Notes under the pieces: model-generated
Seen by the model: the letters and a program-made list of their open reading frames with translations, nothing else
What the model was told of the DNA's origin: nothing
Database searches by the model: none
Shown: positions 2,609-40,294 of the stretch, piece by piece
Position numbering within the stretch: the stretch's first letter is position 1
How the letters are laid out: every line of letters begins with the position of its first letter
From: a virus
Strand: one strand, 5' to 3'
DNA length: 41,332 bases
IMG/VR virus record: IMGVR_UViG_3300027907_000008
Position numbers and translations under genes: made by a program

Positions 2609-2908
2609 ATGCGACAATCACTCACACCCCAGACGCCGACGCCACCGCCCACCCGCGCGCGCTTCGCCTCGCTCGATGACGCGCCGGTCGTGCTGACGCT
2701 CGACGAGCTCGCCCAGATTTATCGCTGCAGCCCGCACACGATTCGACGACGACTCGAAGCGGGCACCTTCACGCCTGCCCCGATCAAGCGACGTCCGTAT
2801 CGCTGGCGCAAGGACGACGTCATCGACGACCTCGATCGCCTCGCGGACGAAGCGGCGCGCTCGTCGTCGTCGTCCCGTCGTCGTCGTGCGTCGCGTCGTT
2901 CGCAGTGA
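2609..2908 (+). CDS. Excisionase/MerR-like HTH_17 DNA-binding protein in the Cro position (99 aa)
   Basis: LTLDELAQIYRCSPHTIRRRLEAGTFTPAPIKRRPYRWRKDDVIDDL matches the AlpA/Xis-type winged HTH pattern. The gene is divergent from the repressor. Confidence 0.7.
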   Translation: MRQSLTPQTPTPPPTRARFASLDDAPVVLTLDELAQIYRCSPHTIRRRLEAGTFTPAPIKRRPYRWRKDDVIDDLDRLADEAARSSSSSRRRRASRRSQ

Positions 2909-2937
2909 ATGCGTGTCAACCGCTAGGAGGTGTGCTC

Positions 2938-3807
2938 ATGGCTGATTCGTCTACAGCCATTGTTCCCGCGTCGTCGACGAGCGTCGCCCTGCCCGTGCCG
3001 CAATTCACCGGACAGCAGATGGTCGATGCGCTCGTCGCGTATCGCGAGGTGCAGCGTGCGCTCGATGGCGCGATGCCCGAAGCGATCATCGACGTCGAGG
3101 GTCGACCGTTTCGCAAAAAGGCGTACTGGCGCGCCATCGCCGTGGCCTTTAATCTCGACGTCGACGTCGTCGAAGAGCGACGCGAAGTCAGCGGCAGCTT
3201 TCACGACGGGCGCGAGAACGTCGGCTATGTCGTCACGTGTCGCGCGACGACGCGCAGCGGACGCAGCGTCACGGGTGACGGCAGCTGCTTCGCCGTCGAA
3301 AAGGCGGCGCGCTTCCGCTGCCCGCACCCGCACCCGTCATGGGACGGCAAGTCGCTGCACTACCCGCACGAGTCCTGTCCGGACTTCGACGCCGACTATC
3401 GCTGGCGCGAGTATCCGGCACAGGCCAGTGAGCACAATCTGCGCTCGCACGCGCATACGCGCGCCTTCAATCGCGCCGTGTCGAACAACGTCGGCTTCGG
3501 CGAAGTCAGCGCCGAAGAGGTCGAGCGCGACGATCGCGACGAGCGTCACGCGCCGACGACGTCGCGTCGCACGTCGAGCGCGTCGAGCAACCGACCTCCG
3601 CGCGTCATCTCCGATCTGCAGCGCAAGCGACTCTGGGCTATCGCGAAGGAAGCCGGGTGGAAGGAACCCGAGGTCAAGGCGTATCTGCTGCGCGTGCATC
3701 ATGTCGAGCACACCGACGCGATCACCGTCGACAAGTACGACGCCATCTGCAAAGCGCTGGAGCTCGGCGTCGAGCCCGCGCCCGCCGCATCAGAGGTGTC
3801 GTCGTGA
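2938..3807 (+). CDS. Putative single-strand annealing recombinase (ERF/Rad52-superfamily-like), 289 aa
   Basis: A strong RBS taggaggtgtgctcATG is present. The beta-hairpin-like GYVVTCRATTRSGRSVTGDGSC followed by HTRAFNRAVSNNVGFGEVSAEE resembles the ERF/Rad52-type core. The gene is coupled to an exonuclease gene. The family assignment was not verified. Confidence 0.6.
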   Translation: MADSSTAIVPASSTSVALPVPQFTGQQMVDALVAYREVQRALDGAMPEAIIDVEGRPFRKKAYWRAIAVAFNLDVDVVEERREVSGSFHDGRENVGYVVTCRATTRSGRSVTGDGSCFAVEKAARFRCPHPHPSWDGKSLHYPHESCPDFDADYRWREYPAQASEHNLRSHAHTRAFNRAVSNNVGFGEVSAEEVERDDRDERHAPTTSRRTSSASSNRPPRVISDLQRKRLWAIAKEAGWKEPEVKAYLLRVHHVEHTDAITVDKYDAICKALELGVEPAPAASEVSS

Positions 3808-5537: not shown

Positions 5538-5960
5538 ATGGAACGAATGCTAATCAAGGACCCGGACGTCGACATCGTCTTCGCGATCGAACAGGACGAC
5601 GACGCGATCGTGCTCGCCGCGCTCGACGTGACGGCCGAAGCCAAGAGTGGCGGGCTCTGTTCGCATCTGCTCGCGTCGCTGCCGCTGGCGGGACGCATCG
5701 ACGACGTCGAGATGATCAACCGGCAGCGCGAGCGCTTCACGCGCTTCGAGGTCGACTGCGGCAACGTGCATCACCTGATGCGCGATCTGCTGACGCTGGA
5801 GCACGACTATCGCGAATCGGTCGATCGCTTCGCGCTCGCCGACAGTCGGGCGAAGTCACTCAAAAAGGACGTCGACACGTGCGCCGCCAAGGTGCACGAC
5901 CTACTGCAGCGCATCGCGACGCGCAAGCCGCTGCCGCTCTTCGAGGCGATTGGCGGATGA
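5538..5960 (+). CDS. Hypothetical acidic protein (140 aa)
   Basis: RBS gggaggtgacgaATG; balanced composition. Confidence 0.7.
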   Translation: MERMLIKDPDVDIVFAIEQDDDAIVLAALDVTAEAKSGGLCSHLLASLPLAGRIDDVEMINRQRERFTRFEVDCGNVHHLMRDLLTLEHDYRESVDRFALADSRAKSLKKDVDTCAAKVHDLLQRIATRKPLPLFEAIGG

Positions 5961-6943
5961 CACGGGACCACGTCTACGGCAAGCTGCTCGACTCGTACTG
6001 GTCGGGCGAGACGGGACGCGCGATTCAAGCGCGCGGCAAGGACGCAGTCATCCTCGGTGTGTATCTGCCCTCGACGCGTCACGCGAACATGATCGGACTG
6101 TTCGAGCTCCCGCTGCTGTATATCGAACACGACTTGCCCGTGCTCGATGGACGCAGCGCGATCCGCGACGCGCTGCGCGCGCTCGACGACGTCGGCTTCG
6201 CGTTCTATGACGACGACGCCGAAGTCGTCTGGGTCGTCGAGATGGCGCGCATACGCTGCGGCCTGCCCGATCACGACGTGCTGCTCGATCTGCGCGACAA
6301 AAAGCACGCGGCGATCCGTCGACTCCTGCGCACGGTCAAGCCCAACGACTTGACGTCACGATTCGTCGCGCGCTACCGCGACCAGCTGAGCCTGAGTGAT
6401 GCCCCTTACAAGCCCCTTCCAAGGGGCATCGAAGCCGAAAAGCCCCTTGCAAGGGGCATCGAAGGGGCTTCGCTACGCGCGCGTGATCAGCAGGCAGCAG
6501 GCAGCAGGCAGCAGGACGTACACACACACACTGACGATGAGCTTGTTGTCAGTACAAGCACCTCGGAATCTCAGCCGCGTCCTAACCAGCCGAACAGTCG
6601 CAACGAAGACGGACCGCTCGACGAGTGGCTGCGCGCGCTCATGAGTGACTACCCGTCGACGCGCGTCACGCACGGCTATCGCACCGAGACAGCCTTCGTC
6701 GACCAGATTGCGCGCGACGGACGTGAGCCGCGCGTCGTGTATCAGGAGATGCGCGACAACCTCGAAAACCAGAAGCGCGGATATGAGTGGCGCGTCAAGC
6801 GCATGGTGCCCACGCTCGACAAGTGGCTCAGCGAAGGACGCTGGAAGCAGCGGCACGAGGAAGAACCCGCCGACGCGCTCGCGCCGAAGACGCAGCGCAC
6901 GCTTGCCGCGCTCGACTCGATTCGACGAAAGGAAAATCCATGA
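5957..6943 (+). CDS. Putative replication initiator/replisome organiser (328 aa) with iterons embedded in its linker
   Basis: ATGA coupling. The protein has a winged-helix-like N-domain, a low-complexity linker carrying the DNA repeats, and a C-terminal W/R-rich domain (KWLSEGRWKQR) like phage replication organisers. The lambda O-like layout supports the call. Confidence 0.6.
   Translation: MTRDHVYGKLLDSYWSGETGRAIQARGKDAVILGVYLPSTRHANMIGLFELPLLYIEHDLPVLDGRSAIRDALRALDDVGFAFYDDDAEVVWVVEMARIRCGLPDHDVLLDLRDKKHAAIRRLLRTVKPNDLTSRFVARYRDQLSLSDAPYKPLPRGIEAEKPLARGIEGASLRARDQQAAGSRQQDVHTHTDDELVVSTSTSESQPRPNQPNSRNEDGPLDEWLRALMSDYPSTRVTHGYRTETAFVDQIARDGREPRVVYQEMRDNLENQKRGYEWRVKRMVPTLDKWLSEGRWKQRHEEEPADALAPKTQRTLAALDSIRRKENP
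6398..6468. repeat. Candidate origin iterons: two 24-bp direct repeats, each containing a hairpin palindrome (agccccttSCaaggggcatcgaag), plus extra half-sites
   Basis: GCCCCTT is at 6401, 6412 and 6442. AAGGGGC is at 6421, 6451 and 6462. The full repeats are 6411-6434 and 6441-6464. Confidence 0.6.
6488..6515. repeat. Perfect heptanucleotide tandem repeat (CAGCAGG)x4 inside coding sequence
   Basis: Read directly; the unit length is not a multiple of three. Confidence 0.9.
6520..6531. repeat. Dinucleotide repeat (AC)x6, followed by a locally AT-richer stretch with the inverted repeat ctgac..gtcag
   Basis: Read directly. Confidence 0.9.
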
Positions 6944-7817: not shown

Positions 7818-8093
7818 ATGGACGACGCAGCCATCGTCGAGCCGGTCCCGCATGACGCCGTCGACGCGCTCGTGCAGCGCTTCGTGCGCATCGCGTGTGA
7901 CGAGCACGTCACGCTGGGCGTGTTTCGCGCGGCGCTCTTCGGCCTCGCCGCGAGTGAGTTGCATCGACTGGTGCACGACCCGCAGCGCGGCGAGGTGCCC
8001 GCCGAAGTCGTCGCGCTAGAAGAGCAGCTGAGTATCTTCGCGACGACGGTCACCGCGCTCGTGCTCGAACGACAGCAGCAGCGCCCGTCATGA
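7818..8093 (+). CDS. Hypothetical protein (91 aa)
   Basis: ATG ORF with plausible composition, coupled to the next gene. Confidence 0.65.
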   Translation: MDDAAIVEPVPHDAVDALVQRFVRIACDEHVTLGVFRAALFGLAASELHRLVHDPQRGEVPAEVVALEEQLSIFATTVTALVLERQQQRPS

Positions 8094-8857
8094 CGTCGTC
8101 GCGTGCGGTGCATCTCGTGCCCGTGGAGGTCGATGAGTACGATCGCGTCGTTCCGGCCTCGCCGCTCTGTCCGCTGTCGGCGATACAAGACGGCGTCAAC
8201 TACGGCTCATCGTGCAGTGCGGACGGCAGCGGCTGCATGGGATTCGCTGGCGTGTGGACTTCGCCCGCAGACGCGCACTACACGATGTGCCGTATGCCGG
8301 GACAGCCGACAGCCGCAGAACACTTCGCGCACGCGCTCGCCGTGCTGAGCGATCTGGCGTTCCTCTATCGCGACGAGCCGCGCGTGATCGGCTTTCGCGT
8401 GTTCGGCAATGTCGACGACTTCGAGGCTGCGTGGAACGCAGACGCGCGTGCGCCACTCAGGTGGCGGTCTGGCGAGTGGCGACTGTATGCGGGTCGCGAT
8501 GGCTTCGAGCCCGTCTTCAGAAAGGACGACGTTATGCGAGAACCGATCGTGAAGTTTTACAAGTCATTCGAGCAAGGCGGCAACGGGGCATTCGCGACGG
8601 CGACCACGGCGGCAGAGCCCGAGGAATTTCTGCGCGAGTGTGCCGCTGAATTGGAAACAGTCGTGACCGCGCGCGCTGGCGATCTGCACTTCACCTTTGA
8701 TGCGTTGCTGCCGCAGATCTGCGAGCTCTGGGCACGACTCAAAGGCTATAAGGCGGATGGTGTCTTCGAGAAGCGATACCTCGTCGCAGGAGAACCCAAT
8801 CCCGAAGCGCACATGGAATGCGTGAACGGACGCGAGGTGACGACGAGCGCGTCATGA
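8090..8857 (+). CDS. Hypothetical protein (255 aa)
   Basis: ATGA coupling; long and compositionally normal. No family recognised. Confidence 0.75.
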   Translation: MTSSRAVHLVPVEVDEYDRVVPASPLCPLSAIQDGVNYGSSCSADGSGCMGFAGVWTSPADAHYTMCRMPGQPTAAEHFAHALAVLSDLAFLYRDEPRVIGFRVFGNVDDFEAAWNADARAPLRWRSGEWRLYAGRDGFEPVFRKDDVMREPIVKFYKSFEQGGNGAFATATTAAEPEEFLRECAAELETVVTARAGDLHFTFDALLPQICELWARLKGYKADGVFEKRYLVAGEPNPEAHMECVNGREVTTSAS

Positions 8858-11824: not shown

Positions 11825-12028
11825 ATGCCCATGTATTGCGGTGAAGCCGTCAGCGACGACTATCTGCAATCGCTCGTCGAGGCGTATCGCGACGGCTGGA
11901 AGACGGTCGACGACAACGTCGAGGACGGCGACGCACCGATCATCGCGCGACTCGAAAGCGAACAGGTCAAGCACGACGTCGGCGCGAAGGCGCTCGGCGT
12001 GAAGGACGCGACCGCAGGCGGGGCGTGA
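11825..12028 (+). CDS. Hypothetical acidic protein (67 aa)
   Basis: RBS gaaaggacaccccATG. Confidence 0.65.
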   Translation: MPMYCGEAVSDDYLQSLVEAYRDGWKTVDDNVEDGDAPIIARLESEQVKHDVGAKALGVKDATAGGA

Positions 12029-12420
12029 GTCAGCGCGCACGTCGCATCTGCGTCGATAACCCGCGCTGTCCGCATGTCGCCGTCGAAGGCAGCCGCTACT
12101 GCGCGCAGCATCTGCAGCAGCGTCTGCGCACGCAGCAGCCGACGGCGCATGCGCGCGGCTACGACGGGCAGTGGGCGCTGTTCTCGCGTCGCTGGCTCGC
12201 GCTGCATCGCTGGTGCGGCGAGCGCGACGACTTCCGCCAGCACGCCGAGCACAGTCGCTGCACGCAGCAGGGCGAGCGCACCCGCGCACAACTCACGGAC
12301 CACATACAGGCGCTGCGTGCGGGCGGCAACAAGTACGACACGCGCAATCTGCAGTCACTCTGTCGTGCGTGTCACAACCGCAAGATCATCGCCCACGAAG
12401 GCGGCTGGGTCACTGTCTGA
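12025..12420 (+). CDS. HNH endonuclease (131 aa), the terminase-associated type of HK97-like cos phages
   Basis: GYDGQWALFSRRWLALHRWCGE...AQLTDHIQALRAGGNKYDTRNLQSLCRACHNRK is a canonical HNH motif. Confidence 0.85.
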   Translation: MSQRARRICVDNPRCPHVAVEGSRYCAQHLQQRLRTQQPTAHARGYDGQWALFSRRWLALHRWCGERDDFRQHAEHSRCTQQGERTRAQLTDHIQALRAGGNKYDTRNLQSLCRACHNRKIIAHEGGWVTV

Positions 12421-12435
12421 CGAAAGGACGCTCAC

Positions 12436-12582
12436 ATGGCGCTGCTGTCACTTTCGGCGTTGCTGCTGCTCGGCGCGTTCGTCGTCACCATCGCCGCCGC
12501 GCTCGGACGGGCGCCCCTCTGGGTCGCGGTGCTGCTCGTCGTCCTCGTGCAGATGCTCGGACTCGGCTGGGCGATTCGGTGA
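12436..12582 (+). CDS. Small two-helix membrane protein (48 aa; below the ORF-track cutoff)
   Basis: RBS gaaaggacgctcacATG. MALLSLSALLLLGAFVVTIAAALGRAPLWVAVLLVVLVQMLGLGWAIR forms two hydrophobic spans. Confidence 0.5.
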   Translation: MALLSLSALLLLGAFVVTIAAALGRAPLWVAVLLVVLVQMLGLGWAIR

Positions 12583-12758
12583 CACGACACACGCTGCTGC
12601 TGCTCGTGCTCGTCACGACGAGCGCCTGCGCGCTGCCGCTGCGTCGCACGTGTCTCGACGGCTGGCCGATTCGCATCCTGCAGGACCCGCAGTGCGCGCG
12701 CGGCATCTGCGGCTACACGTGCGCGCCAGACCGCTGGCGCACTGACGCGTCACGCTAA
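12579..12758 (+). CDS. Small putative lipoprotein (59 aa), Cys-rich mature part
   Basis: GTGA coupling to the membrane peptide. The signal sequence LLLLVLVTTSAC ends in a lipobox-like T-S-A-C. Confidence 0.5.
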   Translation: MTRHTLLLLVLVTTSACALPLRRTCLDGWPIRILQDPQCARGICGYTCAPDRWRTDASR

Positions 12759-12769
12759 ACGGAGGCTTC

Positions 12770-13189
12770 ATGTCCACGACCTACATGCGCTCGGACCTTT
12801 ACGTGTGGGACGTCGCGCTCGCCAACGGCGACATCCGCAAGCTGCTCGCAGCGCAGTCGCCCAGCGGCTTTACCTCGCCCGTGACCTCAGCGGTCCGGGG
12901 GGTGGCGTACGCAAACGGACCACCACCGGCCCCGTCGACACTCGTGCCCGCAACCGCCAAGCTCGGCGACGCGTCCTTCACGCTGCACGTGCAAGGCGTG
13001 AGCTTCCGGGTCGGCGACGTCATCACGTGGAACGGTGTCGCCCAGCCGACGACGCTCGTGTCAGCCACAGAGCTCACGACGTCGGTCGACATGACGAAGC
13101 AGACCACGGCGCTGCCCATCCCGGTGACCGTGCGTGCGCTCAGCGGCGCAGCCAGTGACCCGTTGACGTTCGACCTCCGGCTGACATGA
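12770..13189 (+). CDS. Hypothetical protein with an IPT/TIG-like Ig-fold C-terminal domain (139 aa)
   Basis: The pattern LVPATAKLGDASFTLHVQGVSFRVGDVITWNGVAQPTTLVSATELTTSV...PIPVTVRA is typical of IPT/Ig-like domains. Confidence 0.65.
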   Translation: MSTTYMRSDLYVWDVALANGDIRKLLAAQSPSGFTSPVTSAVRGVAYANGPPPAPSTLVPATAKLGDASFTLHVQGVSFRVGDVITWNGVAQPTTLVSATELTTSVDMTKQTTALPIPVTVRALSGAASDPLTFDLRLT

Positions 13190-13439
13190 GTCACACGCAG
13201 ACACGCGCGACACGGGAGCTCGACGCACACGCGCGGACTCGACGATGGCGAACGTCACTTCTGCACAGCAAATCCGACGAGGCCGCGCCGCCACCGTATG
13301 GCACTCAAATTTCTAGGGAATCTGACCGCGTCTTACTGCTTGGCCCCTCGATTCAGGCGGTCGCACGTTGTCGGTTGGGGGTAGACGGGGCGAAACCACC
13401 GGGAAACCCCACGAAATCGCCGGTACGCAGGATAACGTA

Positions 13440-14012
13440 ATGCCCACGCACATACGCGAGCTCACGAGTGACCCGCAGAACCGACGCACGCACAATCCAC
13501 GCAACCTCGGCATGCTGAGCGACGCGCTGCGCGCGGTCGGTGCTGCGCGCAGCATCGTCATCGACGAGCACGACGTCGTGCTGGCGGGCAACGGCGTCGT
13601 TGAAGCGGCAGCCGAAGCGGGCATCGTGCGCGTGCAGACCATCGACGTCGACGGTGAGACGATCGTGGCTGTGCGTCGCACGGGACTCAGCGACGAGCAG
13701 AAGCGACAACTGGCGATGTATGACAACCGCACGAGTGAGCTCGCCGCGTGGAACGTCGAGCAGCTGAAGCTCGACACCGCAGCGGGACTCGACCTGCAGC
13801 CGTTTTTTACCGATGCCGAGCGCGTCAAGCTGTTCGGCGCTGCACTCGACGCGCCGTCTGCGTTCCCGGTCGTCGACGCGAACCTGCAGACGACGTATCG
13901 CTGCCCGTCGTGCGGCTACGAATGGAGCGGACGCGCGAAGACGCACGCAGCGCCCGAAGACGACGACGCAGCGATCGCGAGTGATGACGCGCCGTCTGAG
14001 CCGAGCGTATGA
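13440..14012 (+). CDS. ParB N-terminal (ParB/Srx nuclease-like) domain protein with a C-terminal CxxC ribbon (190 aa)
   Basis: IRELTSDPQNRRTHNPRNLGMLSDALRAVGAARSIVIDEHDVVLAGNGVVEAAAEAG is the ParB-N signature. YRCPSCGYEW lies near the C-terminus. Confidence 0.8.
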   Translation: MPTHIRELTSDPQNRRTHNPRNLGMLSDALRAVGAARSIVIDEHDVVLAGNGVVEAAAEAGIVRVQTIDVDGETIVAVRRTGLSDEQKRQLAMYDNRTSELAAWNVEQLKLDTAAGLDLQPFFTDAERVKLFGAALDAPSAFPVVDANLQTTYRCPSCGYEWSGRAKTHAAPEDDDAAIASDDAPSEPSV

Positions 14013-14992
14013 CGACGCCCGCGTATGTCGTGCCGACGCTTGCGGAGATACGCGGCTGGCCGCTCAGCGACTACTGCGTCGCGTCGCTGTTCTCGGGCTG
14101 TGGCGGCTCATCGCTCGGCTACCGCATGGCGGGCTTGCGCGTGCTGTATGCGAATGAATTCGTCGAGGCCGCGCGTGACACGTATCGCGCCAACTTCCCG
14201 CTGACGTATCTCGACCCGCGCGACGTGCGCAGCGTGAAGGGCGCCGACGTGCTCGACGTCTGCGGGCTCGAGGCGGGCGCGCTCGACGTGCTCGATGGCT
14301 CGCCGCCCTGCGCGTCGTTCTCCAGCGCGGGCAAGCTCGAACGTCACTGGCGCAGCGCGAAGAGCTACAGCGACACGCACCAGCGCACCGATGATCTGTT
14401 TTTCGAGTACCTGCGGCTCGTCGATGAGATCCGCCCGCGCGTCTGCGTCGCCGAGAACGTGTCGGGGCTCATCCGGGGCGTCGCCAAGGGACTGTGCAAG
14501 CAGATCCTTGCGCGCTTCGCGTCGCTCGACTATCACGTCGAGGCGCGGCTGCTCGACGCGCAATGGCTCGGCGTGCCGCAGCGTCGCTCACGCGTGATCT
14601 TCGTCGCCGTGCGTCGCGATCTGCACGTCGCGCCCGCACTGCCCGCGCCCGCCGCGACGCGCTTCGTCATTCGCGACGCGCTGCCGCAGCTGCTCGCGCT
14701 GCAGGACACCGTGTGGCATGCGCGCTGGATTCCCGCATCACAGCCCGCGCCAGCCATCACGACCGCACCGACGCACTGCATCGAGCTCGACAAAGGCTCG
14801 ACGCGTCGTGCGCTCACCATCCCTGAGCTCAAGCGACTGTGCAGCGTGCCCGATGACTTCGTGCTGACCGGCACGTATGCGCAGCAATGGGAGCGGCTCG
14901 GGCGCGCGGTGCCGCCCGCGATGATGCGCGCGATCGCGACGACGATCCGTGAGCGCGTGCTCGACGTCGCACGACTGGAGGCGAGCGCATGA
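14009..14992 (+). CDS. DNA (cytosine-5)-methyltransferase family protein (327 aa) with atypical motif X (G-R-A-V instead of G-N-A-V)
   Basis: Motif I is LFSGCGGSSLGY, IV GSPPCASFS, VI ENVSGL, VIII QRRSRVIFVAV, IX RALTIPELKRLCSVPDDF and X LGRAVPPAM. Confidence 0.9.
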   Translation: MTTPAYVVPTLAEIRGWPLSDYCVASLFSGCGGSSLGYRMAGLRVLYANEFVEAARDTYRANFPLTYLDPRDVRSVKGADVLDVCGLEAGALDVLDGSPPCASFSSAGKLERHWRSAKSYSDTHQRTDDLFFEYLRLVDEIRPRVCVAENVSGLIRGVAKGLCKQILARFASLDYHVEARLLDAQWLGVPQRRSRVIFVAVRRDLHVAPALPAPAATRFVIRDALPQLLALQDTVWHARWIPASQPAPAITTAPTHCIELDKGSTRRALTIPELKRLCSVPDDFVLTGTYAQQWERLGRAVPPAMMRAIATTIRERVLDVARLEASA

Positions 14993-15717
14993 GTGACGAG
15001 ACGACTGCTGTCGACCACGTGCAGCAGACGGGACCGTGGCGCTTCACGGCAGACGTGGCGTCGGTCTTCGATGACATGCTGCGTCGCTCGATCCCGCAGC
15101 ACGACGACATGCGCGCGCTCGTCTTCGAGCTCGGCTCGCGCTTCGTGCGTCCGCAGACGACCGTGCTTGACTTGGGCTGCTCGCGCGGCGAAGCGCTCGA
15201 TCCGTTCGTGCGACGCTTCGGCGCGCACAATCGCTTCGTCGGTGTCGACGTCAGCGGACCGATGCTCGACGCCGCGCGCGCACGCTTCGAGGGCTACATG
15301 CGCACGAACGTCGTCGCGATTGCCGAGTGCGATCTGCGGCACGACTATCCACGCGAGCACGCGTCGCTGACGCTCGCCGTGCTGACGCTGCAATTCGTGC
15401 CGCTCGAATATCGGGCGACGCTCGTGCGGCGCATGTATGAGCAGACGCTGCCGGGGGGCGCGTGCATCGTCGTCGAGAAGGTGCTGGGCGACTCGCCGCG
15501 CATCGACACGCTGCTCGTCGATGAGTATCTCAGCCTGAAGCGCGCGCACGGCTACAGCGCCGACGAGATTGCGCGCAAGCGACTCGCGCTCGAAGGCGTG
15601 CTCGTGCCGCTCACGGCGCACTGGAACGTCGAGCAGCTGCGACACGCGGGCTTCGCGGACGTCGACTGCTTCTGGCGCTGGCTCAATTTCGCCGGCTGGC
15701 TGGCGGTGCGCGCATGA
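14989..15717 (+). CDS. cmoA: CmoA-like class I SAM-dependent enzyme (carboxy-S-adenosyl-L-methionine synthase homologue), 242 aa
   Basis: Full-length colinear similarity to E. coli CmoA as recalled: [75 protein letters not shown]. Needs an HMM or alignment check. Confidence 0.75.
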   Translation: [242 protein letters not shown]

Positions 15718-16262
15718 AAAGTGGACCCGCTCCGAAACCGACGCGCCTGCGACAACTGCAGGGCAACCCGTCGCGCCGACCCATGAACCTCGACGAGCCG
15801 CAGCTGCCCGCCGCCGACGCGCGCTTCGACGTCGTGCCCATCGTGCTTCGAGACGACGCCGTCGCGAGCAGCGAGTGGCGACGTCTCGCGCCGCTGCTGC
15901 GTGTCGCGCGCATCGTCACCGAAGCCGATCGCGCGTCGCTCATCGCCGCGTGTCAGCAGTGGAGTATCTATCAGCACGCGCTGACGCAGGCGCCGCCCGA
16001 GCGTCGCGTGCTGCGCACGCCTAACGACTACCCGATGGTGAACCCCTATATCGCCATCGCCAATAAGGCGCTGCTGCACTGCGAGCGACTGTGGGATGCG
16101 TTGGGCCTGACGCCCGCGGCGCGCTCGCGTGTCGCGATGGCGGGCGCGGCGAGCGATAACGATCCGTTCGCGGAATTCGACGAGCCGCGTGCGCGTCTCG
16201 CGCATGGGCCGTCGCTCGACGGGCGCATGCGCGTCGACGACGAGGATGGCTCCGTCAACTGA
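15714..16262 (+). CDS. terS: Terminase small subunit, P27 family
   Basis: The N-terminus MKSGPAPKPTRLRQLQGNPSRRPMNLDEPQ is the P27-family signature. The gene lies directly upstream of TerL. Confidence 0.85.
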   Translation: MKSGPAPKPTRLRQLQGNPSRRPMNLDEPQLPAADARFDVVPIVLRDDAVASSEWRRLAPLLRVARIVTEADRASLIAACQQWSIYQHALTQAPPERRVLRTPNDYPMVNPYIAIANKALLHCERLWDALGLTPAARSRVAMAGAASDNDPFAEFDEPRARLAHGPSLDGRMRVDDEDGSVN

Positions 16263-17970
16263 GCACGTCGTCGACGTCTACGCGCGACGCGTCGTCGCGG
16301 GCGACGTGCCGGCGGGCACCTATCATCGACTCGCGTGCGCGCGCCATCTGCGCGATCGTGAGCGCGAGCGCGACGACGACAGCTGGCCGTTCTACTTCGA
16401 CGCGCTCGAAGCGGATCGCTTCTATCGCTTCGCGAGCTCACTGCGACACTACAAGGGCGAGCAATTCGCAGGACGACGCATCGAACTCGTCGACGTGCAG
16501 CGCTTTCGGCTCGGCTCGATCTTCGGCTGGTATCACCGCGAGACGAACCTGCCGCGCTACACGACGGCGTATAACGAGCTCCCGCGCAAGTCGGGCAAGA
16601 CGCTCGAAGCGGCGATCGTCGCGCTGTATCAGGTGTTCTTCCGGGGCGAGCCCGGAGCCGAGGGCTACGTCGTCGCGACGAAGCGTCAGCAGGCCAAGCT
16701 CTGTTTCGACGCGGCGCGCAAGCTGGTGCGCTCATCGGGGCTGCGCGATCGCATCCGCGTGCTGACGCACAACCTGCACCGCGACACGCTCGACGCCAAG
16801 CTCGAACCGTTGGGCGCGGACGCGGACTCGACGGACGGGCTCAACCCGTTCTGCATCATCACCGACGAATTCCACGCGCACAAGACACGCGACCTCGTCG
16901 ATGTCATGGAAAGCGCGACGGGCGCACGTCTCAGCTTTCTGCATTTCATCATCACGACCGCAGGCGACGAGCTCACGAGTCCGTGCGGCGAGATGCACAC
17001 CTACTGCTGCAACATCCTCGACGAGACGCTGCCCAGCGACGCGGCGACCGAAAGCACCTTCGCGCTCATCGCGCACGCAGACCCGACCGACGACTGGCAA
17101 GACGAGCGCACGTGGGTCAAGGCCAATCCGATGTGGGACGTGAGCGTGAACCCGGACGACATGCGCAAGGCGGCGCTGGCGGCGCGACACAATCCCGGCC
17201 GCGCGAATGAATTCAAGCAGAAGCGACTGAACCTCTGGATCGCCGCGCGCGATCCGTGGCTCAGCGTCGAGGGCTGGCGCAGCGGACAGCACGTCTGGGA
17301 CGTCGACGAGCTCGTCGGCGAGTCGTGCTTCGTCGGCATCGACCTCGCGAGCAAGCTCGATCTATGCGCGATGGTCTTCGTCTTTCCGCCGACCGACACG
17401 CGCGCCGCGTATCGACTGTTGCGCTGGGTGTGGACGCCCGAAGACACGCTGCGCGATCGCGCGCATCGCGACCACGCGCCGTATGAGCTCTGGACGCAGC
17501 AGCGCGGCTTCGACCGTGAGCCCGTCCTGCGCACGTCGCCGGGAACGCAAGTCAATCATCAGGTGCTGCGCGACGTGCTGCGCGAGCAGCGCGCGCGCTA
17601 TCGCATCGAGCGGATCGGCTTCGACCCGTGGCATGCCGACACGCTCATCGACCAACTCATCGAAGAGGACGGCTTCGAGCGCGACGACGTCGTCGAAGTC
17701 AGTCAGACGTACGCGGGCATGTCGAGCGGGGCGGCGGCGTATGAAGCAGCGGTACTGGCGGGACTCGTCGACGCGGGCGGCTGTCCGCTGATGACATGGA
17801 CGCACGCGAACGCGGTGGTGCAGCGCGACCCACGTGGCAACGCGTTCCCGATTAAGAAAAAGTCGCGCGGACGCATCGACCCCGTGATGGCGGCGGTCAT
17901 CGGGGTCAACCTCGTGCTGCGTGCGCGTCCAGAGTCACCGGCCGAAGATCCGGTGCTCATCGTCGCATGA
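16246..17970 (+). CDS. terL: Terminase large subunit (574 aa)
   Basis: Walker A-like ELPRKSGKTLEAA, a Terminase_1-type layout and a nuclease C-domain. Start taken at ATG 16246 (MAPSTEHVV), because the upstream part of the ORF overlaps terS and is Arg/Ser-rich. Confidence 0.9.
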   Translation: MAPSTEHVVDVYARRVVAGDVPAGTYHRLACARHLRDRERERDDDSWPFYFDALEADRFYRFASSLRHYKGEQFAGRRIELVDVQRFRLGSIFGWYHRETNLPRYTTAYNELPRKSGKTLEAAIVALYQVFFRGEPGAEGYVVATKRQQAKLCFDAARKLVRSSGLRDRIRVLTHNLHRDTLDAKLEPLGADADSTDGLNPFCIITDEFHAHKTRDLVDVMESATGARLSFLHFIITTAGDELTSPCGEMHTYCCNILDETLPSDAATESTFALIAHADPTDDWQDERTWVKANPMWDVSVNPDDMRKAALAARHNPGRANEFKQKRLNLWIAARDPWLSVEGWRSGQHVWDVDELVGESCFVGIDLASKLDLCAMVFVFPPTDTRAAYRLLRWVWTPEDTLRDRAHRDHAPYELWTQQRGFDREPVLRTSPGTQVNHQVLRDVLREQRARYRIERIGFDPWHADTLIDQLIEEDGFERDDVVEVSQTYAGMSSGAAAYEAAVLAGLVDAGGCPLMTWTHANAVVQRDPRGNAFPIKKKSRGRIDPVMAAVIGVNLVLRARPESPAEDPVLIVA

Positions 17971-18341
17971 GCGATCTGAGTCTGCGATGGGCGGCGGTCG
18001 TCGAGCAGGCGGTCACGAGCGCGGAGTTTCGCGCGGCATGGCGCGAGGTCGGCGAGGCGGGCGTCGGATCGATGGATGCGGTCGAGGCGTGCTTCGCGCT
18101 CGTGCAGCAGAGCGCGTATCACGGCGAGCACTTGACAAACACGGCCAAGGACATCGCCGAGGCGGCGGCGACATGGGCCGATGCGCCCATGGACGAGTCC
18201 TCATTCGAGCGATTCATGGTGCGGTTGTTATCGCTGCTGCAAACGACCGCCGCGATCTATCTGGCGATCGGCGCGCTCACGGGCATCGGATCGATCAGCG
18301 GCGTCGGAGCTGGCGACGACGACGACGAGGGCGTCGCATGA
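17967..18341 (+). CDS. Hypothetical protein (124 aa)
   Basis: ATGA coupling to terL; normal composition; hydrophobic C-terminal segment followed by an acidic tail. Confidence 0.65.
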   Translation: MSDLSLRWAAVVEQAVTSAEFRAAWREVGEAGVGSMDAVEACFALVQQSAYHGEHLTNTAKDIAEAAATWADAPMDESSFERFMVRLLSLLQTTAAIYLAIGALTGIGSISGVGAGDDDDEGVA

Positions 18342-19038: not shown

Positions 19039-20532
19039 ATGGCGATCATCAGCAGCGTCGGCGCACTGCAGTCGGTCAACGCGATGGCGTCGCCCGTGCT
19101 GGCGAGCGCGTCGAGTCCGTCGTCGACGTGGCTGTACAACGCAGTCGATCCCTACGTCTACGGCGCGCTGTATCGCACGCAGCCGAGCGTGCGCATGGTC
19201 GTCGACTTCCTCGCCCGCAACATCGCGCAGCTGGGGCTGCACGTCTATCGTCGCGTCAGCGACACGGATCGCGAGCGACTGCAGGACCATCAGCTGGCCG
19301 ACTGGCTCGCGCACCCGACGGACTACACGACGCGCTATCGCCTCATCGAGTCGACGCTGCAGGACTTGGGGATCTACTTCAACGCGTACTGGGCCAAGGT
19401 GCGCATGCCCGACCGCATCGGACTGCAGCGTCTGCCGCCCGCGCAGATGACGGTCATCGGTGGACTCGTGCCGAGCGTCTATCGCTGGGTCACGAGCGCG
19501 GGTGACATCTACGACTTCGCCCCGCGTGACGTCGTCCACTTCAGCGGCTACGACCCGGACAACCCGCTCATGGGTCTGTCGCCGCTCGAAACCCTGCGCC
19601 GCGTCATCGCCGAAGACGTCGCGGCGATGGCGCATCGCGAAGCGTTCTGGACGAACGCGGCGCGCATCGAGGGCGTCGTCGAGCGACCGCTGGCCGCGAA
19701 GCTGTGGTCGCCCGAACAGGTCGACAGCTTCAAGGGGCAATGGTCCGCGCGCTTCACGGGCGCAGCGGGCGCGGGCACCGTGCCCGTGCTGCAGGAAGGC
19801 ATGAGCTTCAAGCCGATCGCCTTCTCGCCCCGGCAGGCCGAATACGTGCAAGCGCGCAAGCTGTCGCGCGAAGAGGTCGCGAGCGCGTACCACATTCCGC
19901 TGCCGATGGTCGGCATCCTCGAACACGCCACCTTTAGCAACATCAAGGAACAGCATAAACAGCTGTATCAAGACTCACTCGGGCCGTGGCTCGAAATGAT
20001 CGCCGAAGAGATTGAGCGACAGCTGCTCGTCGACTGCGCCGATCAGGATCGCGTCTACGTCGAATTCAACATCGCCGAGAAGCTGTCGGGCAGCTTCGAG
20101 GAACAGGCCGCGTCGCTGCAGACGCTCATCGGCGCACCCATCATGACGCGCAACGAAGGCCGCGCGCGTCTCAACCTGCCGTCGATCGACGAGCCCGGAG
20201 CCGACGCGCTCGTGCGTCCGCTGAACACGACGACGACGACGAGTGACGCGACGGTGCCCGCGAGCGTGCCGCCGAGCGCCGTCGCGCCAGTCATCGAGCG
20301 CGCATGGCGTCGACAAGCGGCGGTGCTGCGCAAGGTCGACGTCGACGATCGCGCGCTCGCGTTCGACGATGAGCGCTGGACGCGCGAGCTCGCGCACGAC
20401 TTGAAGCTGACGGGCGTCGAGGCGCTGCAGGCCGAACGGCTCGCCTACGTCGTCAACCGCGACACGCGCACGCGACTCGAAGCGCAGATCAACCCGTTCA
20501 CGCGTGAGGCTTCCGACTATGTCGACGACTAG
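19039..20532 (+). CDS. Portal protein (HK97 family), 497 aa
   Basis: Its size, its position after TerL and the motifs VRMVVDFLARNIAQLGLHVY and LGIYFNAYWAKV are typical of HK97-type portals. Confidence 0.9.
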   Translation: MAIISSVGALQSVNAMASPVLASASSPSSTWLYNAVDPYVYGALYRTQPSVRMVVDFLARNIAQLGLHVYRRVSDTDRERLQDHQLADWLAHPTDYTTRYRLIESTLQDLGIYFNAYWAKVRMPDRIGLQRLPPAQMTVIGGLVPSVYRWVTSAGDIYDFAPRDVVHFSGYDPDNPLMGLSPLETLRRVIAEDVAAMAHREAFWTNAARIEGVVERPLAAKLWSPEQVDSFKGQWSARFTGAAGAGTVPVLQEGMSFKPIAFSPRQAEYVQARKLSREEVASAYHIPLPMVGILEHATFSNIKEQHKQLYQDSLGPWLEMIAEEIERQLLVDCADQDRVYVEFNIAEKLSGSFEEQAASLQTLIGAPIMTRNEGRARLNLPSIDEPGADALVRPLNTTTTTSDATVPASVPPSAVAPVIERAWRRQAAVLRKVDVDDRALAFDDERWTRELAHDLKLTGVEALQAERLAYVVNRDTRTRLEAQINPFTREASDYVDD

Positions 20533-21511
20533 CCGCTATCGACATCTGTGCGCGTATGCGCTCGATCACCCGTGGGCGCTGACGCCCGACATGCTGCGCG
20601 TCGTCGCGAGCATCCTCAGCGATCGGCTGACGGGTGGACGTGCGAGCGACGAGCAGATCGCCTCGGCGCTGGCGCTGCGCAAAAACGATCTGCCGCAGCC
20701 GACGCGCGGCGGCGTGATGGTGATCCCGGTGTATGGCGTGCTGTCGCCGCGCATGAACATGCTGAGTGAGTCGAGCGGCGGCACGAGTTACGAGCGGCTC
20801 GGCGCGCATCTGCGCGAGGGACTGGCGCACAGTGACGTGTCGACGATCGTGCTCGACATCGACTCGCCCGGAGGCAGCGTCGCGGGCGCCGCCGAGCTCG
20901 CGTCGCAGATTCGCGCCGCGCGTGCGCAGAAGCCCATCATCGCCGTCGCCAACCATCAGTGCGCGAGCGCGGCGTATTGGCTCGCCAGCAACGCGACGAA
21001 GGTGCACGCGTCGCCGTCCGCGTCGGTCGGCTCGATTGGCGTGTTCACGATTCACCACGATCTGAGCGAGATGTTGGCGAAGGCGGGCATCAAGCGCACG
21101 CTCGTCGCCGCAGGCAAGTACAAGCTCGATGGGCTCGACGGCGAGCCGCTGTCCGAGAGTGCGCTGGCGTATCGCACCGACGTCGTCGGCAAGACGTATG
21201 AGCGCTTTGTCGGACACGTCGCCGCAGGACGCGGCGTATCGCCGAGCGTCGTTCGCAAGGACTACGGCGAGGGACGCTGTCTCGACGCTGACGATGCGCT
21301 CACGTGCGGCATGGTCGACAAGATCGCCACGCTCGATGAGACGCTGGACCGTCTGCTGCCCGCAGGCGAGTCGCGTCCCGTGCTCGACTTTTCGTCACGC
21401 AGCGACACACCGCAGGAGCTCGCAGCGCGGGCCACCGGTCAGGATCGACGCGTCGACGTTCACTGGCAGGCGCGCATCGAGCGCGCGCTGCTCGAATTGT
21501 CAATGCCGTAA
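20519..21511 (+). CDS. Prohead (head maturation) protease, S49/ClpP-like
   Basis: VIPVYGVLSPRMN...IVLDIDSPGGSVAGAAELASQIRAARAQKPIIAVANHQCASAAYWLASNATKVHASPSASVGSIGV is the S49 SppA-type core. Confidence 0.85.
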   Translation: MSTTSRYRHLCAYALDHPWALTPDMLRVVASILSDRLTGGRASDEQIASALALRKNDLPQPTRGGVMVIPVYGVLSPRMNMLSESSGGTSYERLGAHLREGLAHSDVSTIVLDIDSPGGSVAGAAELASQIRAARAQKPIIAVANHQCASAAYWLASNATKVHASPSASVGSIGVFTIHHDLSEMLAKAGIKRTLVAAGKYKLDGLDGEPLSESALAYRTDVVGKTYERFVGHVAAGRGVSPSVVRKDYGEGRCLDADDALTCGMVDKIATLDETLDRLLPAGESRPVLDFSSRSDTPQELAARATGQDRRVDVHWQARIERALLELSMP

Positions 21512-21523
21512 GAGGACCGCGCC

Positions 21524-22810
21524 ATGAACATCGACCAACTCCGTCGCGACTTTGTCGCGAAGCGTGACGCCGCGCAGACGCAGCTGAAGAAAGTCAGCAC
21601 CGCAGCGGAAGCCGAGAACCGTCTCATGAACGACGACGAGCGCGCGAGCGTGCAGACGCTCATGAGCGAAGCGAACGCGCTCAAGACGCAACTGGAGCGC
21701 GCCGAGAGTGACGCCGCGATGGGCCGCGCGATCGAAGCGCTCGTGCCCGCGACGATTCCCTCGCCCGCACTGCCCGCCCGCAATGGCGATGGCCGCACGT
21801 CTGCGACGCTGCCCGCGCCCGTGCGTCTGTCATGGGGCGAGCAATTCGTCAGCAGTGAGCAATATCAATTCTTCCGCTCGGGTCAGCACAAGACGTCCTC
21901 AGCGTGGCGCTCGCCGTCGATTGAGCTCACCGCGCGTCCGTCCGGGCTCTGGGCGGCGACGCTCACGGAAGATCCGGCGAGCGGCGGCAAGCTGATTCTG
22001 CCCGACTATCAGGCGGGCGTGCAGCCGCTGCTGTTTCGACGTCCCGTCGTCGCGGACCTGATTGCCCCCGGTACGACCGACAGCAATCTCGTCACCTACA
22101 TGCGCGAGACGACCTTCACCAACGCGGCCGACACGGTCGCGGAAGGCGCGGTGAAGCCGGAAAGCACATTGACCTTCGACACGACGAGCGACCCCGTGCG
22201 GAAGATCGCGCACTGGTTGCCCTGCACCGAAGAGATGCTCGAAGACGCGCCGCAGATTCGTTCCTATATCGACTCGCGTCTGCGACTGGGCATCGAGCTC
22301 GCCGAGGAAGATCAGCTGCTGCAGGGCACGACGACGCCACCCGACATCGTCGGCATCCGCAATCGCACGGGACTCGCGGCGGATGTCGTCGTCGGTGTCG
22401 CGCCCGACAACAACATCGAAGCGATCTTCCGACAGATCATGGCGATCGCGGGCGCGTCGTTTCTGACGCCGGATGGCATCGTGCTCAATCCTGCGAACTG
22501 GTCGACGATTCAACTCGCGAAGACCACGACGGGTGAATATCTCGGCGGCGGTCCGTTCAGCGCAGCGGCGACGCCGACCCTCTGGGGTCTGCCCGTCGTC
22601 GTGACGCCGGTCATCCCTGCGGGGGTCGGACTCGTCGGCGCGTATCGCACGGGCGCGCAAGTCTTCCGCAAGGGCGGCGTGCGGGTCGAAGCCTCGAACA
22701 GCCATCAGGACTTTTTCATCAAGAACCTTGTGGCCATTCGCGCTGAGGAACGACTCGCGCTCGCCGTCTATCGTCCGGGCGCGTTCGGTGAGGTGACGGG
22801 CCTCGTCTGA
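21524..22810 (+). CDS. Major capsid protein, HK97 fold, with an N-terminal delta/scaffold-like coiled coil
   Basis: RBS agaggaccgcgccATG, a helical N-terminus, AEGAVKPES and a C-terminal NSHQDFFIKNLVAIRAEER typical of the HK97 family. Confidence 0.9.
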   Translation: MNIDQLRRDFVAKRDAAQTQLKKVSTAAEAENRLMNDDERASVQTLMSEANALKTQLERAESDAAMGRAIEALVPATIPSPALPARNGDGRTSATLPAPVRLSWGEQFVSSEQYQFFRSGQHKTSSAWRSPSIELTARPSGLWAATLTEDPASGGKLILPDYQAGVQPLLFRRPVVADLIAPGTTDSNLVTYMRETTFTNAADTVAEGAVKPESTLTFDTTSDPVRKIAHWLPCTEEMLEDAPQIRSYIDSRLRLGIELAEEDQLLQGTTTPPDIVGIRNRTGLAADVVVGVAPDNNIEAIFRQIMAIAGASFLTPDGIVLNPANWSTIQLAKTTTGEYLGGGPFSAAATPTLWGLPVVVTPVIPAGVGLVGAYRTGAQVFRKGGVRVEASNSHQDFFIKNLVAIRAEERLALAVYRPGAFGEVTGLV

Positions 22811-37077: not shown

Positions 37078-37169
37078 GCGCGCTATCATTGTGTCGTCGC
37101 ATTCACCTTTTGCATGCGACACGCTTTCGTCCTCATGACGACGACGAACGACACGAAAGGCGCACGACG

Positions 37170-38318
37170 ATGGGTCACTTGATACAGCAGAAGAACAACT
37201 CGCAGAACCTGCTCATGGTCTGGACGGGAACGGACGGCAAGCGCATCACGCGCAGCAGCGGCACGAGCGATCGCAAGGAAGCGCAGCGACTGCTCGACAT
37301 CGAAGTCGGCAAGGTCGCACTGGGCGACGTCGTCACGCGTGAGACGACGGGACGTCGCGCGTGTACGTTCGACGACGCGGTGCGGCTGTATGACGACGAC
37401 CTGACGAAGCGCAAGTGCAGCGGGCGCGATGATCTGGTCGGCAAGATCGCGCTGCATCTGCGTCCCGTGTTCGGGACTCCCGGCACGCGCAAGCTCGCCG
37501 ACATCACGACGGCGAGGGTCGAGGCATACGACAAAGCGCGACGCGACGCGGGCGCGAAGCGCGAGACGATCAATTCAGAGCTTCGCGTGCTGCGTCGACT
37601 GTTCATGATTGCGATCGAGCGCAAGCGCTATCGCGGCGACGTGCCCATCATCACGATTCCCGATGCGAAGAACGCACGGACAGGGTTCTTCGAGCGCGCG
37701 CAGTACGACGCGCTGCAGCAGCAGCTGTCGCACTGGCTGCGCGGTCCCGTCACGCTCGCGTACTTCACGGGCTGGCGCTTCGCGTCTGAGGTCTGCTCAC
37801 TGCGCTGGAGTGAAGTCGACCTGACAGCGGGCGTGCTGCGACTCGACAACAGCAAGAACGGCGAGGGGCGCGTCTTCCCGTTCACGCCGATCGCGGAGCT
37901 CGACGACGCGCTGCACGCAGCGGACGTGCAGCGACAGCGTCTGCAGCGCGAGGGCGTCATCGTGTCGCACGTGTTCCATCGCAACGGCGAGCCGCTGGTG
38001 CTGCCGCCACGCGGGAGCTCGCGCACGGGTGAGACGACGAAGTGGGTGCGCAGCGATTGGGCTGAGTCGTGTAAGCGCGCGGGCGTCGTCGGTCGCATCC
38101 CGCACGACATGCGACGCACTGCGGTGCGCGACTTGATGCGCGCGGGCGTGCCGCTCAAGACGGCCATGAAGCTCACGGGTCACAAGTCGATGAGCGTCTT
38201 CCTGCGTTATCAGATTGTCGATGAGAACGACCTGACAGCAGCGGTCACGCAGTTGGCCGCGCGTCACGCGCTGACGCAGCAGCAGCTGCGACGCACGCGC
38301 ACGAAGCGCGCCGCATAA
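37170..38318 (+). CDS. int: Tyrosine recombinase / phage integrase (382 aa)
   Basis: An SAM-like N-domain is followed by the catalytic signature ..TGWRFASEVCSLRW.., HDMRRTAVRDL and GHKSMSVFLRYQI (R..HxxR..H..Y). RBS gaaagg lies 9 nt upstream of ATG 37170. Confidence 0.9.
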   Translation: MGHLIQQKNNSQNLLMVWTGTDGKRITRSSGTSDRKEAQRLLDIEVGKVALGDVVTRETTGRRACTFDDAVRLYDDDLTKRKCSGRDDLVGKIALHLRPVFGTPGTRKLADITTARVEAYDKARRDAGAKRETINSELRVLRRLFMIAIERKRYRGDVPIITIPDAKNARTGFFERAQYDALQQQLSHWLRGPVTLAYFTGWRFASEVCSLRWSEVDLTAGVLRLDNSKNGEGRVFPFTPIAELDDALHAADVQRQRLQREGVIVSHVFHRNGEPLVLPPRGSSRTGETTKWVRSDWAESCKRAGVVGRIPHDMRRTAVRDLMRAGVPLKTAMKLTGHKSMSVFLRYQIVDENDLTAAVTQLAARHALTQQQLRRTRTKRAA

Positions 38319-39478: not shown

Positions 39479-40294
39479 ATGACGACGACGACATTGACGA
39501 AGACGAAGACGACGACACTGCAGCGCGACGACGCGTGCGTGTCGTGCGGTCGTCGTCTCAAGACATTCAAGCACGCATGGGTCAGCGCGACGAGCAAGTA
39601 CTGCACGAAGGCGTGCGCGACGACGCATCAGGAGCAGCACCCCATGACGACAACAACGACGACGAGCGACGACACGAAGACGCAGCAGCGCGCGACGTGT
39701 TCAGCGTGCTTCGCGGAGCAGGCCATCACGAAGCGCGGCGCGCTCGTCGCGCACGGTTACACGCGTCCGCAGCAGTGGCATCAGAACGTCGGCACGTGCG
39801 ACGGCGCAGGGCAGATGCACTTCGGCACGACGCAGGGTCGTGACTACACGCAGACGCTTGCGCAGCGCGTGCGTGACGCGGCGCAGGGAGTCGACGTTAA
39901 CGCGGCAGACGTGCTCGCGGGTCGCGCCCCGGTGATGGGTCGCAAGCGCATCGCGGGATCGCGCGTCTACACGATGACGGCGATCGAGAACGTGACGCAG
40001 TCGCAGCGTCAGCAGTACGCAGCGACGCTGACGCAGCAGGCGCAGCAGATGCGCGAGCACGCGCGCGAGCTCGACGCAGCAGTCGCGAAGTGGGTCGCGG
40101 TCGCGCCGAAGACGGTGCGCGTCGAAGCGAAGCAGACGCTGCTGCACATGCGCGACGCGGGTCGACGCTTCGGCGGCAAGCTGTGCGCGTCGTCAGCAAT
40201 GGGAGCGCTGAAGGGCTACACGACGAGCGACGTCGCAAGCGTGACGTGCGAGAAGTGCAAAGCGCTCATCGCGCGACGTCAGTCAACGAAGTAA
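39479..40294 (+). CDS. Hypothetical protein (271 aa); possible internal start at ATG 39644
   Basis: An N-terminal zinc-ribbon-like segment (CVSCGRR...YCTKAC) is followed by a second MTTTTTT.. start context in the same frame. Confidence 0.65.
   Translation: MTTTTLTKTKTTTLQRDDACVSCGRRLKTFKHAWVSATSKYCTKACATTHQEQHPMTTTTTTSDDTKTQQRATCSACFAEQAITKRGALVAHGYTRPQQWHQNVGTCDGAGQMHFGTTQGRDYTQTLAQRVRDAAQGVDVNAADVLAGRAPVMGRKRIAGSRVYTMTAIENVTQSQRQQYAATLTQQAQQMREHARELDAAVAKWVAVAPKTVRVEAKQTLLHMRDAGRRFGGKLCASSAMGALKGYTTSDVASVTCEKCKALIARRQSTK

Follow-up and report, generated by a model that had tools for sequence, protein, structure and literature searches.

The question raised by this locus is whether three adjacent genes of a phage encode a pathway that writes 5-carboxymethylcytosine (5cxmC) in DNA. 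The locus lies in IMG/VR record IMGVR_UViG_3300027907_000008, a viral stretch of 41,332 nucleotides (hereafter, the window), and comprises genes for a ParB-like protein, a homologue of cytosine-5 DNA methyltransferases (C5-MTases) and a homologue of CmoA, the synthase of carboxy-S-adenosylmethionine (Cx-SAM). On the basis of the letters alone, an original prediction had proposed that the phage supplies its own Cx-SAM and that a C5-MTase with an arginine in motif X uses this cofactor to carboxymethylate cytosines. Our analysis supports this proposal from the sequence, a structure match and covariation among related loci. All the computational checks suggested with the prediction turned out favourable to it, and we consider it probable that the three genes form a ParB-like/CmoX/CmoA DNA carboxymethylation cassette. 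The putative function is well supported by conserved residues, gene linkage and the precedent of Synechococcus phage S-B43.

The three genes are joined to each other and to the small terminase gene (terS) by ATGA start/stop overlaps at 14009, 14989 and 15714 (Table 1). All these open reading frames (ORFs) and junctions, already described in the original prediction, were confirmed, and an independent gene call on an identical metagenome contig returned the same genes. An AGGA motif is present 7 nt 5′ of the ATG of the ParB-like gene.

The methyltransferase (MTase) encoded by the central gene matched PF00145 (E 7e-49) and TIGR00675, with 147.5 bits against a cut-off of 100.65. The motifs FSGCGG, SPPC, ENV and QRRSR were found, and motif X reads LGRAVPP; both the canonical motifs and the arginine in motif X had been predicted, and the alignments confirmed them. 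Among the Protein Data Bank (PDB) sequences, the best match was 8YF3 (E 6.1e-64), followed by M.HaeIII (1.2e-23). The entry 8YF3 is SpCmoX, the cytosine C5-carboxymethyltransferase of phage S-B43, which Yang et al. crystallised with Cx-SAM (PMC12783734). The AlphaFold2 (AF2) model of the window MTase, whose underlying alignment was built without SpCmoX, had a pLDDT of 87.2 and a pTM of 0.90; its top structural match was again 8YF3 (E 2.9e-29, TM 0.78), and it also resembles C5-MTase structures generally.

The arginine of motif X, Arg299 (codon 14903-14905), lies in ERLGRAVPP and aligns with Arg350 in ERVGRMVPP of 8YF3 and with the asparagine in IGNAVP of M.HaeIII. It coincides, that is, with the Cx-SAM-binding arginine of SpCmoX at the position where M.HaeIII has the usual Asn. 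In SpCmoX, Arg350 stands where M.HhaI has Asn304 and is in contact with the carboxymethyl group; the wild-type enzyme uses Cx-SAM only and rejects S-adenosylmethionine (SAM), the R350N mutant is inactive, and the product is 5cxmC, which blocks HhaI (PMC12783734). Arg299 is thus predicted from the alignment to be the carboxylate-binding residue. The catalytic cysteine, Cys101 (codon 14309-14311), is found in S98-P99-P100-C101, equivalent to S95-P96-P97-C98 of SpCmoX, and the SpCmoX contacts F25, E47, F48 and D69 are kept as F28, E50, F51 and D72. The SPPC motif is invariant among 47 aligned relatives, 46 of which carry Arg at motif X. The remaining one, P0019, carries Asn; it has a ParB-like gene upstream and no CmoA within 10 kb.

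For the protein encoded by the third gene, the top NCBIfam model was TIGR00740 (CmoA; E 8.6e-50), the next family reaching 31 bits, and the phage family phrog_4752 matched it end to end (E 2e-72). Residues 11-242 aligned over the full length with PDB entries 4GEK and 1IM8 (E about 1e-36), and the alignment with E. coli CmoA (EcCmoA), at 34% identity (E 1.6e-38), spanned residues 12-243 of the latter. The end-to-end colinearity with EcCmoA stated in the original prediction was therefore borne out, and the EcCmoA peptides given there were correct. Arg198 (codon 15580-15582) corresponds to EcCmoA Arg199, the sole side chain contacting the Cx-SAM carboxylate and a residue not conserved in ordinary MTases (PMC3663124, PMC4482062). 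The EcCmoA residues D62, G64, S66, D89, D117 and F137 are kept as D61, G63, S65, D87, D115 and F136, and the changes in the cofactor site are Tyr39 to His38, Asn90 to Val88 and Asn132 to Val131. The CmoA of S-B43 (SpCmoA), which is experimentally active, also lacks the EcCmoA residues Asn90 and Asn132; it makes Cx-SAM and was more active than EcCmoA in experiment (PMC12783734). A glutamate of SpCmoA that appears opposite EcCmoA Arg199 was considered as a real difference and rejected as an alignment shift, the RDML/RSML segments aligning 2-3 residues further on. On the basis of the profile matches, which favour the CmoA family over generic class I MTases, and of the retained carboxylate-binding arginine, we assign the 242-aa protein over its full length to the CmoA family and not to the generic methyltransferases.

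A census of 80 bacterial-genome loci encoding MTases 40-65% identical to the window MTase showed that the arginine and CmoA go together. A CmoA homologue was present in the locus of 62/65 Arg-type MTases and of 0/11 others (10 Asn, 1 Met; Fisher p = 6e-11), and the three Arg-type loci without it lie either on a short contig or at the end of one. When the sequences were dereplicated at 90% identity, CmoA was present in 38 Arg clusters and absent from one, and one cluster was mixed; the other clusters without CmoA were five composed of Asn types only, one more in which motif X of the second member was unreadable, and one Met cluster. One of the census search patterns favoured Arg, which cannot produce the association between Arg and CmoA. 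The census thus favours the original prediction over the view that Arg at this position is common in ordinary 5-methylcytosine (m5C) MTases. Pairs of a CmoA-like protein and an Arg-type C5-MTase recur in many phages and prophages.

Asn-type relatives (42-59% identity) were found at L103, L135, L151, L153, L154, L156, L157, L158, L160 and L161 and at the metagenome locus L085. They come mostly from metagenome-assembled genomes (MAGs) of Acidobacteriota; most of them retain the upstream ParB-like gene, and CmoA is present in none. It looks as if members of one MTase clade had switched naturally between methyl and carboxymethyl transfer.

The census also revealed single Verrucomicrobiota MAGs with 4-6 ParB-CmoX-CmoA loci each, sharing 75-88% DNA identity over >20 kb (L113, L117, L120-L122, L125, L129, L133, L134, L137, L139, L142 and L144). 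Each such genome may carry several related prophages or elements; alternatively, the copies may be co-binned strain variants.

Taken together, the proposed route would be as follows. CmoA would convert SAM and host prephenate into Cx-SAM, a reaction established for both E. coli CmoA and S-B43 CmoA. CmoX would then flip the target cytosine out, Cys101 would attack C6, and the carboxymethyl group would move from Cx-SAM to C5 while Arg299 holds the cofactor carboxylate, giving 5cxmC; this transfer was shown for SpCmoX and is proposed here from conserved residues. The carboxymethyl group would stay unamidated, no amide ligase of the CmoY type being recognisable. Through its coupling to terS, the cassette would probably be expressed with the late and packaging genes, so that replicated DNA would be modified before packaging and protected from restriction in the next host. 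The ParB-like protein would act as a DNA-binding accessory of the MTase clade, outside the carboxymethyl chemistry.

Several observations weigh against parts of this route. The CmoA-like protein scores below the equivalog cut-off of TIGR00740 (169.6 bits, cut-off 193.3) and below that of NF011995 (128.3, cut-off 285). Its His38 (15100-15102) stands in place of a tyrosine shared by EcCmoA and the majority of homologues, and only 3/36 aligned homologues have His there; in EcCmoA, this residue (Tyr39) makes a hydrogen bond to the methionine moiety of the cofactor (PMC3663124, PMC4482062). In the MTase, the target-recognition region (14624-14806, residues about 206-266) is 61 aa long, the shortest of the 47 relatives (range 61-185, median 123), and does not align to the 105-aa region of SpCmoX. 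The GC specificity of SpCmoX is therefore not transferable, and the window enzyme may recognise a sequence other than GC. A simple scan found no sigma-70-like promoter near the cassette, and late expression is argued from gene order alone. Finally, four family-less ORFs of 250-330 aa (2905-3807, about 5957-6943, 8090-8857 and 39479-40294), with coding-like G+C at third codon positions and no Pfam match, could encode a novel downstream enzyme, and they are the only such places in the genome; a PHROG scan of two of the four gave one match only, phrog_17208, of unknown function.

The score under the equivalog cut-off could also be taken to mean that the MTase is an ordinary SAM-dependent m5C enzyme and that CmoA serves either the supply of the host tRNA modification cmo5U or an anti-defence depletion of SAM. 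CmoA occurs without a C5-MTase in many phages, among them Alcaligenes phage Afa-NA1 with its complete genome, so other partners or roles of CmoA are possible, and SAM depletion was raised as an open question by Yang et al. (PMC12783734). Nevertheless, we judge this explanation very improbable. Arg299 occupies the carboxylate-binding position of SpCmoX, whose wild-type form rejects SAM; Arg and CmoA covary strictly in the clade; and the MTase and CmoA genes are translationally coupled. Moreover, as the original prediction had stated, the genome holds no CmoB homologue (best tblastn E 0.77) that would spend Cx-SAM on tRNA. Carboxymethyl transfer to cytosine thus remains the preferred reading.

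As for the end product, the ligase CmoY of S-B43 turns 5cxmC into a glycine amide, and native virion DNA of that phage has the amide only (PMC12783734). An analogous conversion by a phage or host enzyme, for example to an amide, would make 5cxmC an intermediate here too and leave a larger hypermodification in the virion DNA. This is consistent with the absence of 5cxmC from native S-B43 DNA, with the presence of AMP-forming ligases of several classes on 2,251 of 5,615 CmoX contigs (PMC12783734), and with the four family-less ORFs described above. On the other side, the window has no SpCmoY homologue (best tblastn E 8.2) and lacks the PP-loop motif SGGxDS, and Pfam and PHROG scans, which covered most ORFs genome-wide, found no ligase, Asn-synthase, ATP-grasp, AMP-binding, amidotransferase or further MTase families. 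The overlap between the CmoX and CmoA genes leaves no room for an intervening gene, and an SpCmoY-like gene is rare among relatives (2/80 genome loci and 3/82 viral loci). We therefore consider a further conversion unlikely. Because no recognisable ligase is found in the complete genome, plain, unamidated 5cxmC is predicted as the final base.

The first gene of the cassette required structural comparison. No Pfam family, including ParB_N (PF02195), matched the ParB-like protein at E<0.01, and the sequence search against the PDB returned noise only. PHROG ParB-like families did match (best phrog_620, E 4.8e-18). A Foldseek search with the AF2 model (pLDDT 84.7) gave 13 ParB/sulfiredoxin (Srx) matches at E<1e-3 in BFVD and, in the PDB, structures of ParB with cytidine diphosphate at probability 0.87-0.96 and weak E (0.04-0.4). 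The PHROG matches and the Foldseek search of the model thus both place the protein in the ParB-N/Srx fold, as originally predicted. The CxxC ribbon assigned to it held only in part: the protein has two cysteines, which form one C155-P-S-C158 knuckle at the C-terminus, and a four-Cys ribbon is therefore impossible for this protein alone.

Among 43 homologues, the segments RSIVIDE, LAGNG, AVRR, QKR and DNR are invariant. In canonical ParB, the arginine patch of box II, GERRxRA, binds cytidine triphosphate (CTP). Here, the patch is replaced by GNGVVEA (GNGVxEA in the family), with G50 and N51 invariant and no Arg in the 43 homologues; because of this replacement, the protein is unlikely to be a CTP-switch ParB. 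In 61/80 genome loci, including 9/10 of the Asn type, and in 13/16 viral loci with CmoX, the MTase gene is preceded by a ParB-like homologue. Since the gene also accompanies Asn-type relatives, it appears to belong to the MTase clade and not to the carboxymethyl chemistry. Homologous ParB_N domains are fused to DNA MTases (phrog_498; "modification methylase" in BFVD) and, in another CmoA clade, to a putative transferase (hhalign probability 91.8%). The protein is a probable DNA-binding or targeting accessory of the transferase. Yang et al. reported ParBc on 1,660 CmoX contigs and stated its function as not known (PMC12783734).

The original prediction had also suggested that the ParB-like protein could be a nuclease cutting unmodified DNA, in which case the cassette would be a restriction-modification-like or host-takeover unit. 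Some proteins with a ParB/Srx domain are named nucleases in PHROG and BFVD, the invariant D42, E43, R79, R80, K88, D95, N96 and R97 suggest an active or ligand site, and the gene always stands before the MTase. However, no nuclease motif was identified, the gene is absent from about a quarter of related loci, and a targeting module is the better fit, given that the same domain is fused to DNA MTases and, elsewhere, to a putative transferase. The suggestion is thus not supported, and we regard a nuclease as distinctly unlikely. Returning to the accessory role, a joint picture can be drawn in which 5cxmC is the terminal base of the virion in a ligase-less class, is written late together with packaging, and has the ParB-like protein without arginine patch as DNA-loading or specificity subunit; we put it forward tentatively, as possible rather than probable. 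Plain 5cxmC would then be a first for native phage DNA, since the DNA of S-B43 holds the glycine amide only.

The cassette belongs to a complete genome. The window is a circular assembly whose first 127 nt are repeated exactly at 41206-41332, and this direct terminal repeat indicates a complete genome of ~41.2 kb, with a G+C content of ~66%. A 41,235-bp metagenome contig (Logan SRR5460694) encodes exactly the same cassette proteins, and the IMG/VR fragment L003 is 98-100% identical to the window. When 12000-18000 was compared by megablast with 50,697 phage records, no match was obtained, hence no close cultured relative at the DNA level. The phage is of the HK97 type, siphovirus-like and soil-type, and the integrase gene indicates a temperate lifestyle. 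Among genome-derived sequences, Vicinamibacterales MAGs supply the nearest relatives of both the ParB-like protein (75%) and the MTase (65%), so that the host probably belongs to the Acidobacteriota. No tRNA genes were detected in the window.

The cassette sits between an HNH endonuclease gene and terS, and the same order, from HNH through ParB-CmoX-CmoA to terS, was found in the relative L009. The cassette is directly upstream of terS in L009 and also in L030, L109 and L141. This recurring position suggests co-expression with the packaging genes.

Table 1. Positions of the cassette genes, of other annotated genes of the window and of an example locus with CmoA and without CmoX
Feature	Sequence	Position	Strand	Details
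ParB-N/Srx-fold protein, stand-alone	Window	13440-14012	+	190 aa; phrog_620, AF2 fold
CmoX-type DNA cytosine C5-carboxymethyltransferase homologue	Window	14009-14992	+	327 aa; PF00145, best match 8YF3
CmoA-type Cx-SAM synthase homologue	Window	14989-15717	+	242 aa; TIGR00740, phrog_4752
terS, P27 family	Window	15714-16262	+	PF05119 E 2.2e-19, TIGR01558; start overlaps CmoA stop (ATGA)
Large terminase (terL)	Window	16246-17970		Library scan and independent gene call
HNH endonuclease	Window	12025-12420	+	PF01844 E 9.2e-9
Portal, S49 protease, HK97-fold capsid	Window	19039-22810		Library scans
gp10-like and gp17-like tail proteins	Window			Library scans
Integrase	Window	37089-38318		Library scans
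ParB_N fusion protein	L056	7771-9363		Example of a CmoX-less locus
CmoA	L056	10001-10699		Example of a CmoX-less locus

CmoA is also found in phages without CmoX. A single-sequence query of IMG/VR returned 4 loci, and an alignment query gave a wider set. CmoX is present in only 16 of 82 IMG/VR loci with close homologues of the window CmoA. In 63/82, tblastn and the hidden Markov model of the CmoX family both failed to detect a C5-MTase over a distance of about 10 kb, so that the longer contigs may hold CmoX farther out. In the CmoX-less loci (among L007-L084), CmoA is 54-62% identical to the window CmoA, and the gene order is a 504-530-aa fusion protein, a ~195-aa unknown protein, CmoA, terS and a gpA-type terL (L056 in Table 1). 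The fusion protein (phrog_5475, motif TILDFGAGHL) combines a ParB_N domain with a weak class-I-MTase-like C-terminal part. The hhalign comparison of this family with CmoA gave a probability of 0.6%, with a low-diversity alignment. On sequence grounds, we regard this protein as a candidate for a non-C5 transferase dependent on Cx-SAM, and its occurrence in this sister clade hints at further Cx-SAM-based DNA modifications.

A second case is Alcaligenes phage Afa-NA1 (PV550095.1, L169-L171), a complete cultured genome of 78,105 bp with CmoA at 62470-63222. Its CmoA shows 42% identity and keeps the KR motif with the Arg199 equivalent, and no C5-MTase is found anywhere in the complete genome. The neighbours of CmoA are a NUDIX protein, an MmcB-like protein, a thymidylate kinase, a thymidylate-synthase fragment and a 439-aa D12-class N6-adenine MTase; the latter has a ~190-aa N-terminal extension, and a separate ordinary Dam is encoded in the same genome. 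In the literature, we found no description of the Cx-SAM user in CmoA phages without CmoX. The presence of CmoA without CmoX in many phages, one of them a complete cultured genome, suggests Cx-SAM acceptors that still await description. This observation may be newer than the cassette of the window and may outweigh it.

The original prediction had known of no described natural system of this kind, a statement that is now out of date. Yang et al. (Nat Commun, 7 Dec 2025) described natural 5cxmC, phage CmoA and CmoX with its key Arg in S-B43, and surveyed 5,615 CmoX candidates with 4,257 CmoA, 2,251 ligase and 1,660 ParBc sequences; the supplements of the paper carry no IMG/VR identifiers (PMC12783734). 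Our literature search found natural systems of this kind reported by these authors only. Natural DNA carboxymethylation is thus already known, and the present cassette is a further member and not a new discovery. Nonetheless, the prediction, made from raw sequence alone, had arrived at what experiment did not establish until late 2025. With its minimal cassette of three genes, this compact and complete genome could serve to test plain 5cxmC as a terminal natural base, and the short recognition region of its CmoX may confer a different specificity, useful for sequencing chemistry. Furthermore, the census ties the ParB-like partner, whose role is unexplained in the literature, to the MTase clade rather than to the cofactor.

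Compared with known systems, the ParB-like protein shares the ParB-N/Srx fold with the ParB_N-fused phage MTases of phrog_498 and with the CTP-dependent ParB and Noc proteins, and its DNR resembles box III (ENxxR). Unlike in the phrog_498 fusions, the domain here forms a stand-alone protein of 190 aa; unlike canonical ParB/Noc, it has GNGVVEA in place of GERRxRA, a C-terminus with a CxxC knuckle, and no recognised helix-turn-helix or dimerisation domain. The CmoA-like protein belongs to the same synthase family as that of the E. coli CmoA-CmoB pathway for tRNA cmo5U34 (b1870/b1871), with end-to-end colinearity, the Arg199 contact and the predicted use of SAM and prephenate. It differs from that pathway in that Cx-SAM would be spent by a DNA C5-MTase homologue, no CmoB is present, the score is under the cut-off, and Tyr39, Asn90 and Asn132 are replaced by His, Val and Val.

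The window MTase also recalls the engineered carboxymethyltransferase M.MpeI N374K of Wang and Kohli (2021), in which a basic residue in place of the motif X Asn reportedly permits the use of Cx-SAM and the formation of 5cxmC. In both enzymes a basic residue replaces this Asn. M.MpeI N374K is engineered, has Lys and acts on CpG, whereas the window enzyme is natural, has Arg and is accompanied by its own Cx-SAM synthase; CpG specificity is not implied.

The closest known system remains that of S-B43. In both phages, a CmoA gene lies beside a gene for an SPPC C5-MTase homologue with Arg at the position of HhaI Asn304 and the same Cx-SAM contacts, and no CmoB is present. An association of such systems with ParBc was also reported in the survey of Yang et al. 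The two differ in their predicted and known products, since the window lacks CmoY and would yield plain 5cxmC, whereas S-B43 DNA carries 5-glycylcarboxymethylcytosine. They also differ in sequence: the window CmoX is about 41-48% identical to SpCmoX, with an unrelated recognition region of 61 vs 105 aa, and the window CmoA is 26-29% identical to SpCmoA and nearer to bacterial CmoA. Lastly, S-B43 is a 214-kb cyanomyovirus, whereas the window represents a ~41-kb temperate siphovirus-like phage with its cassette fused to the terminase operon.

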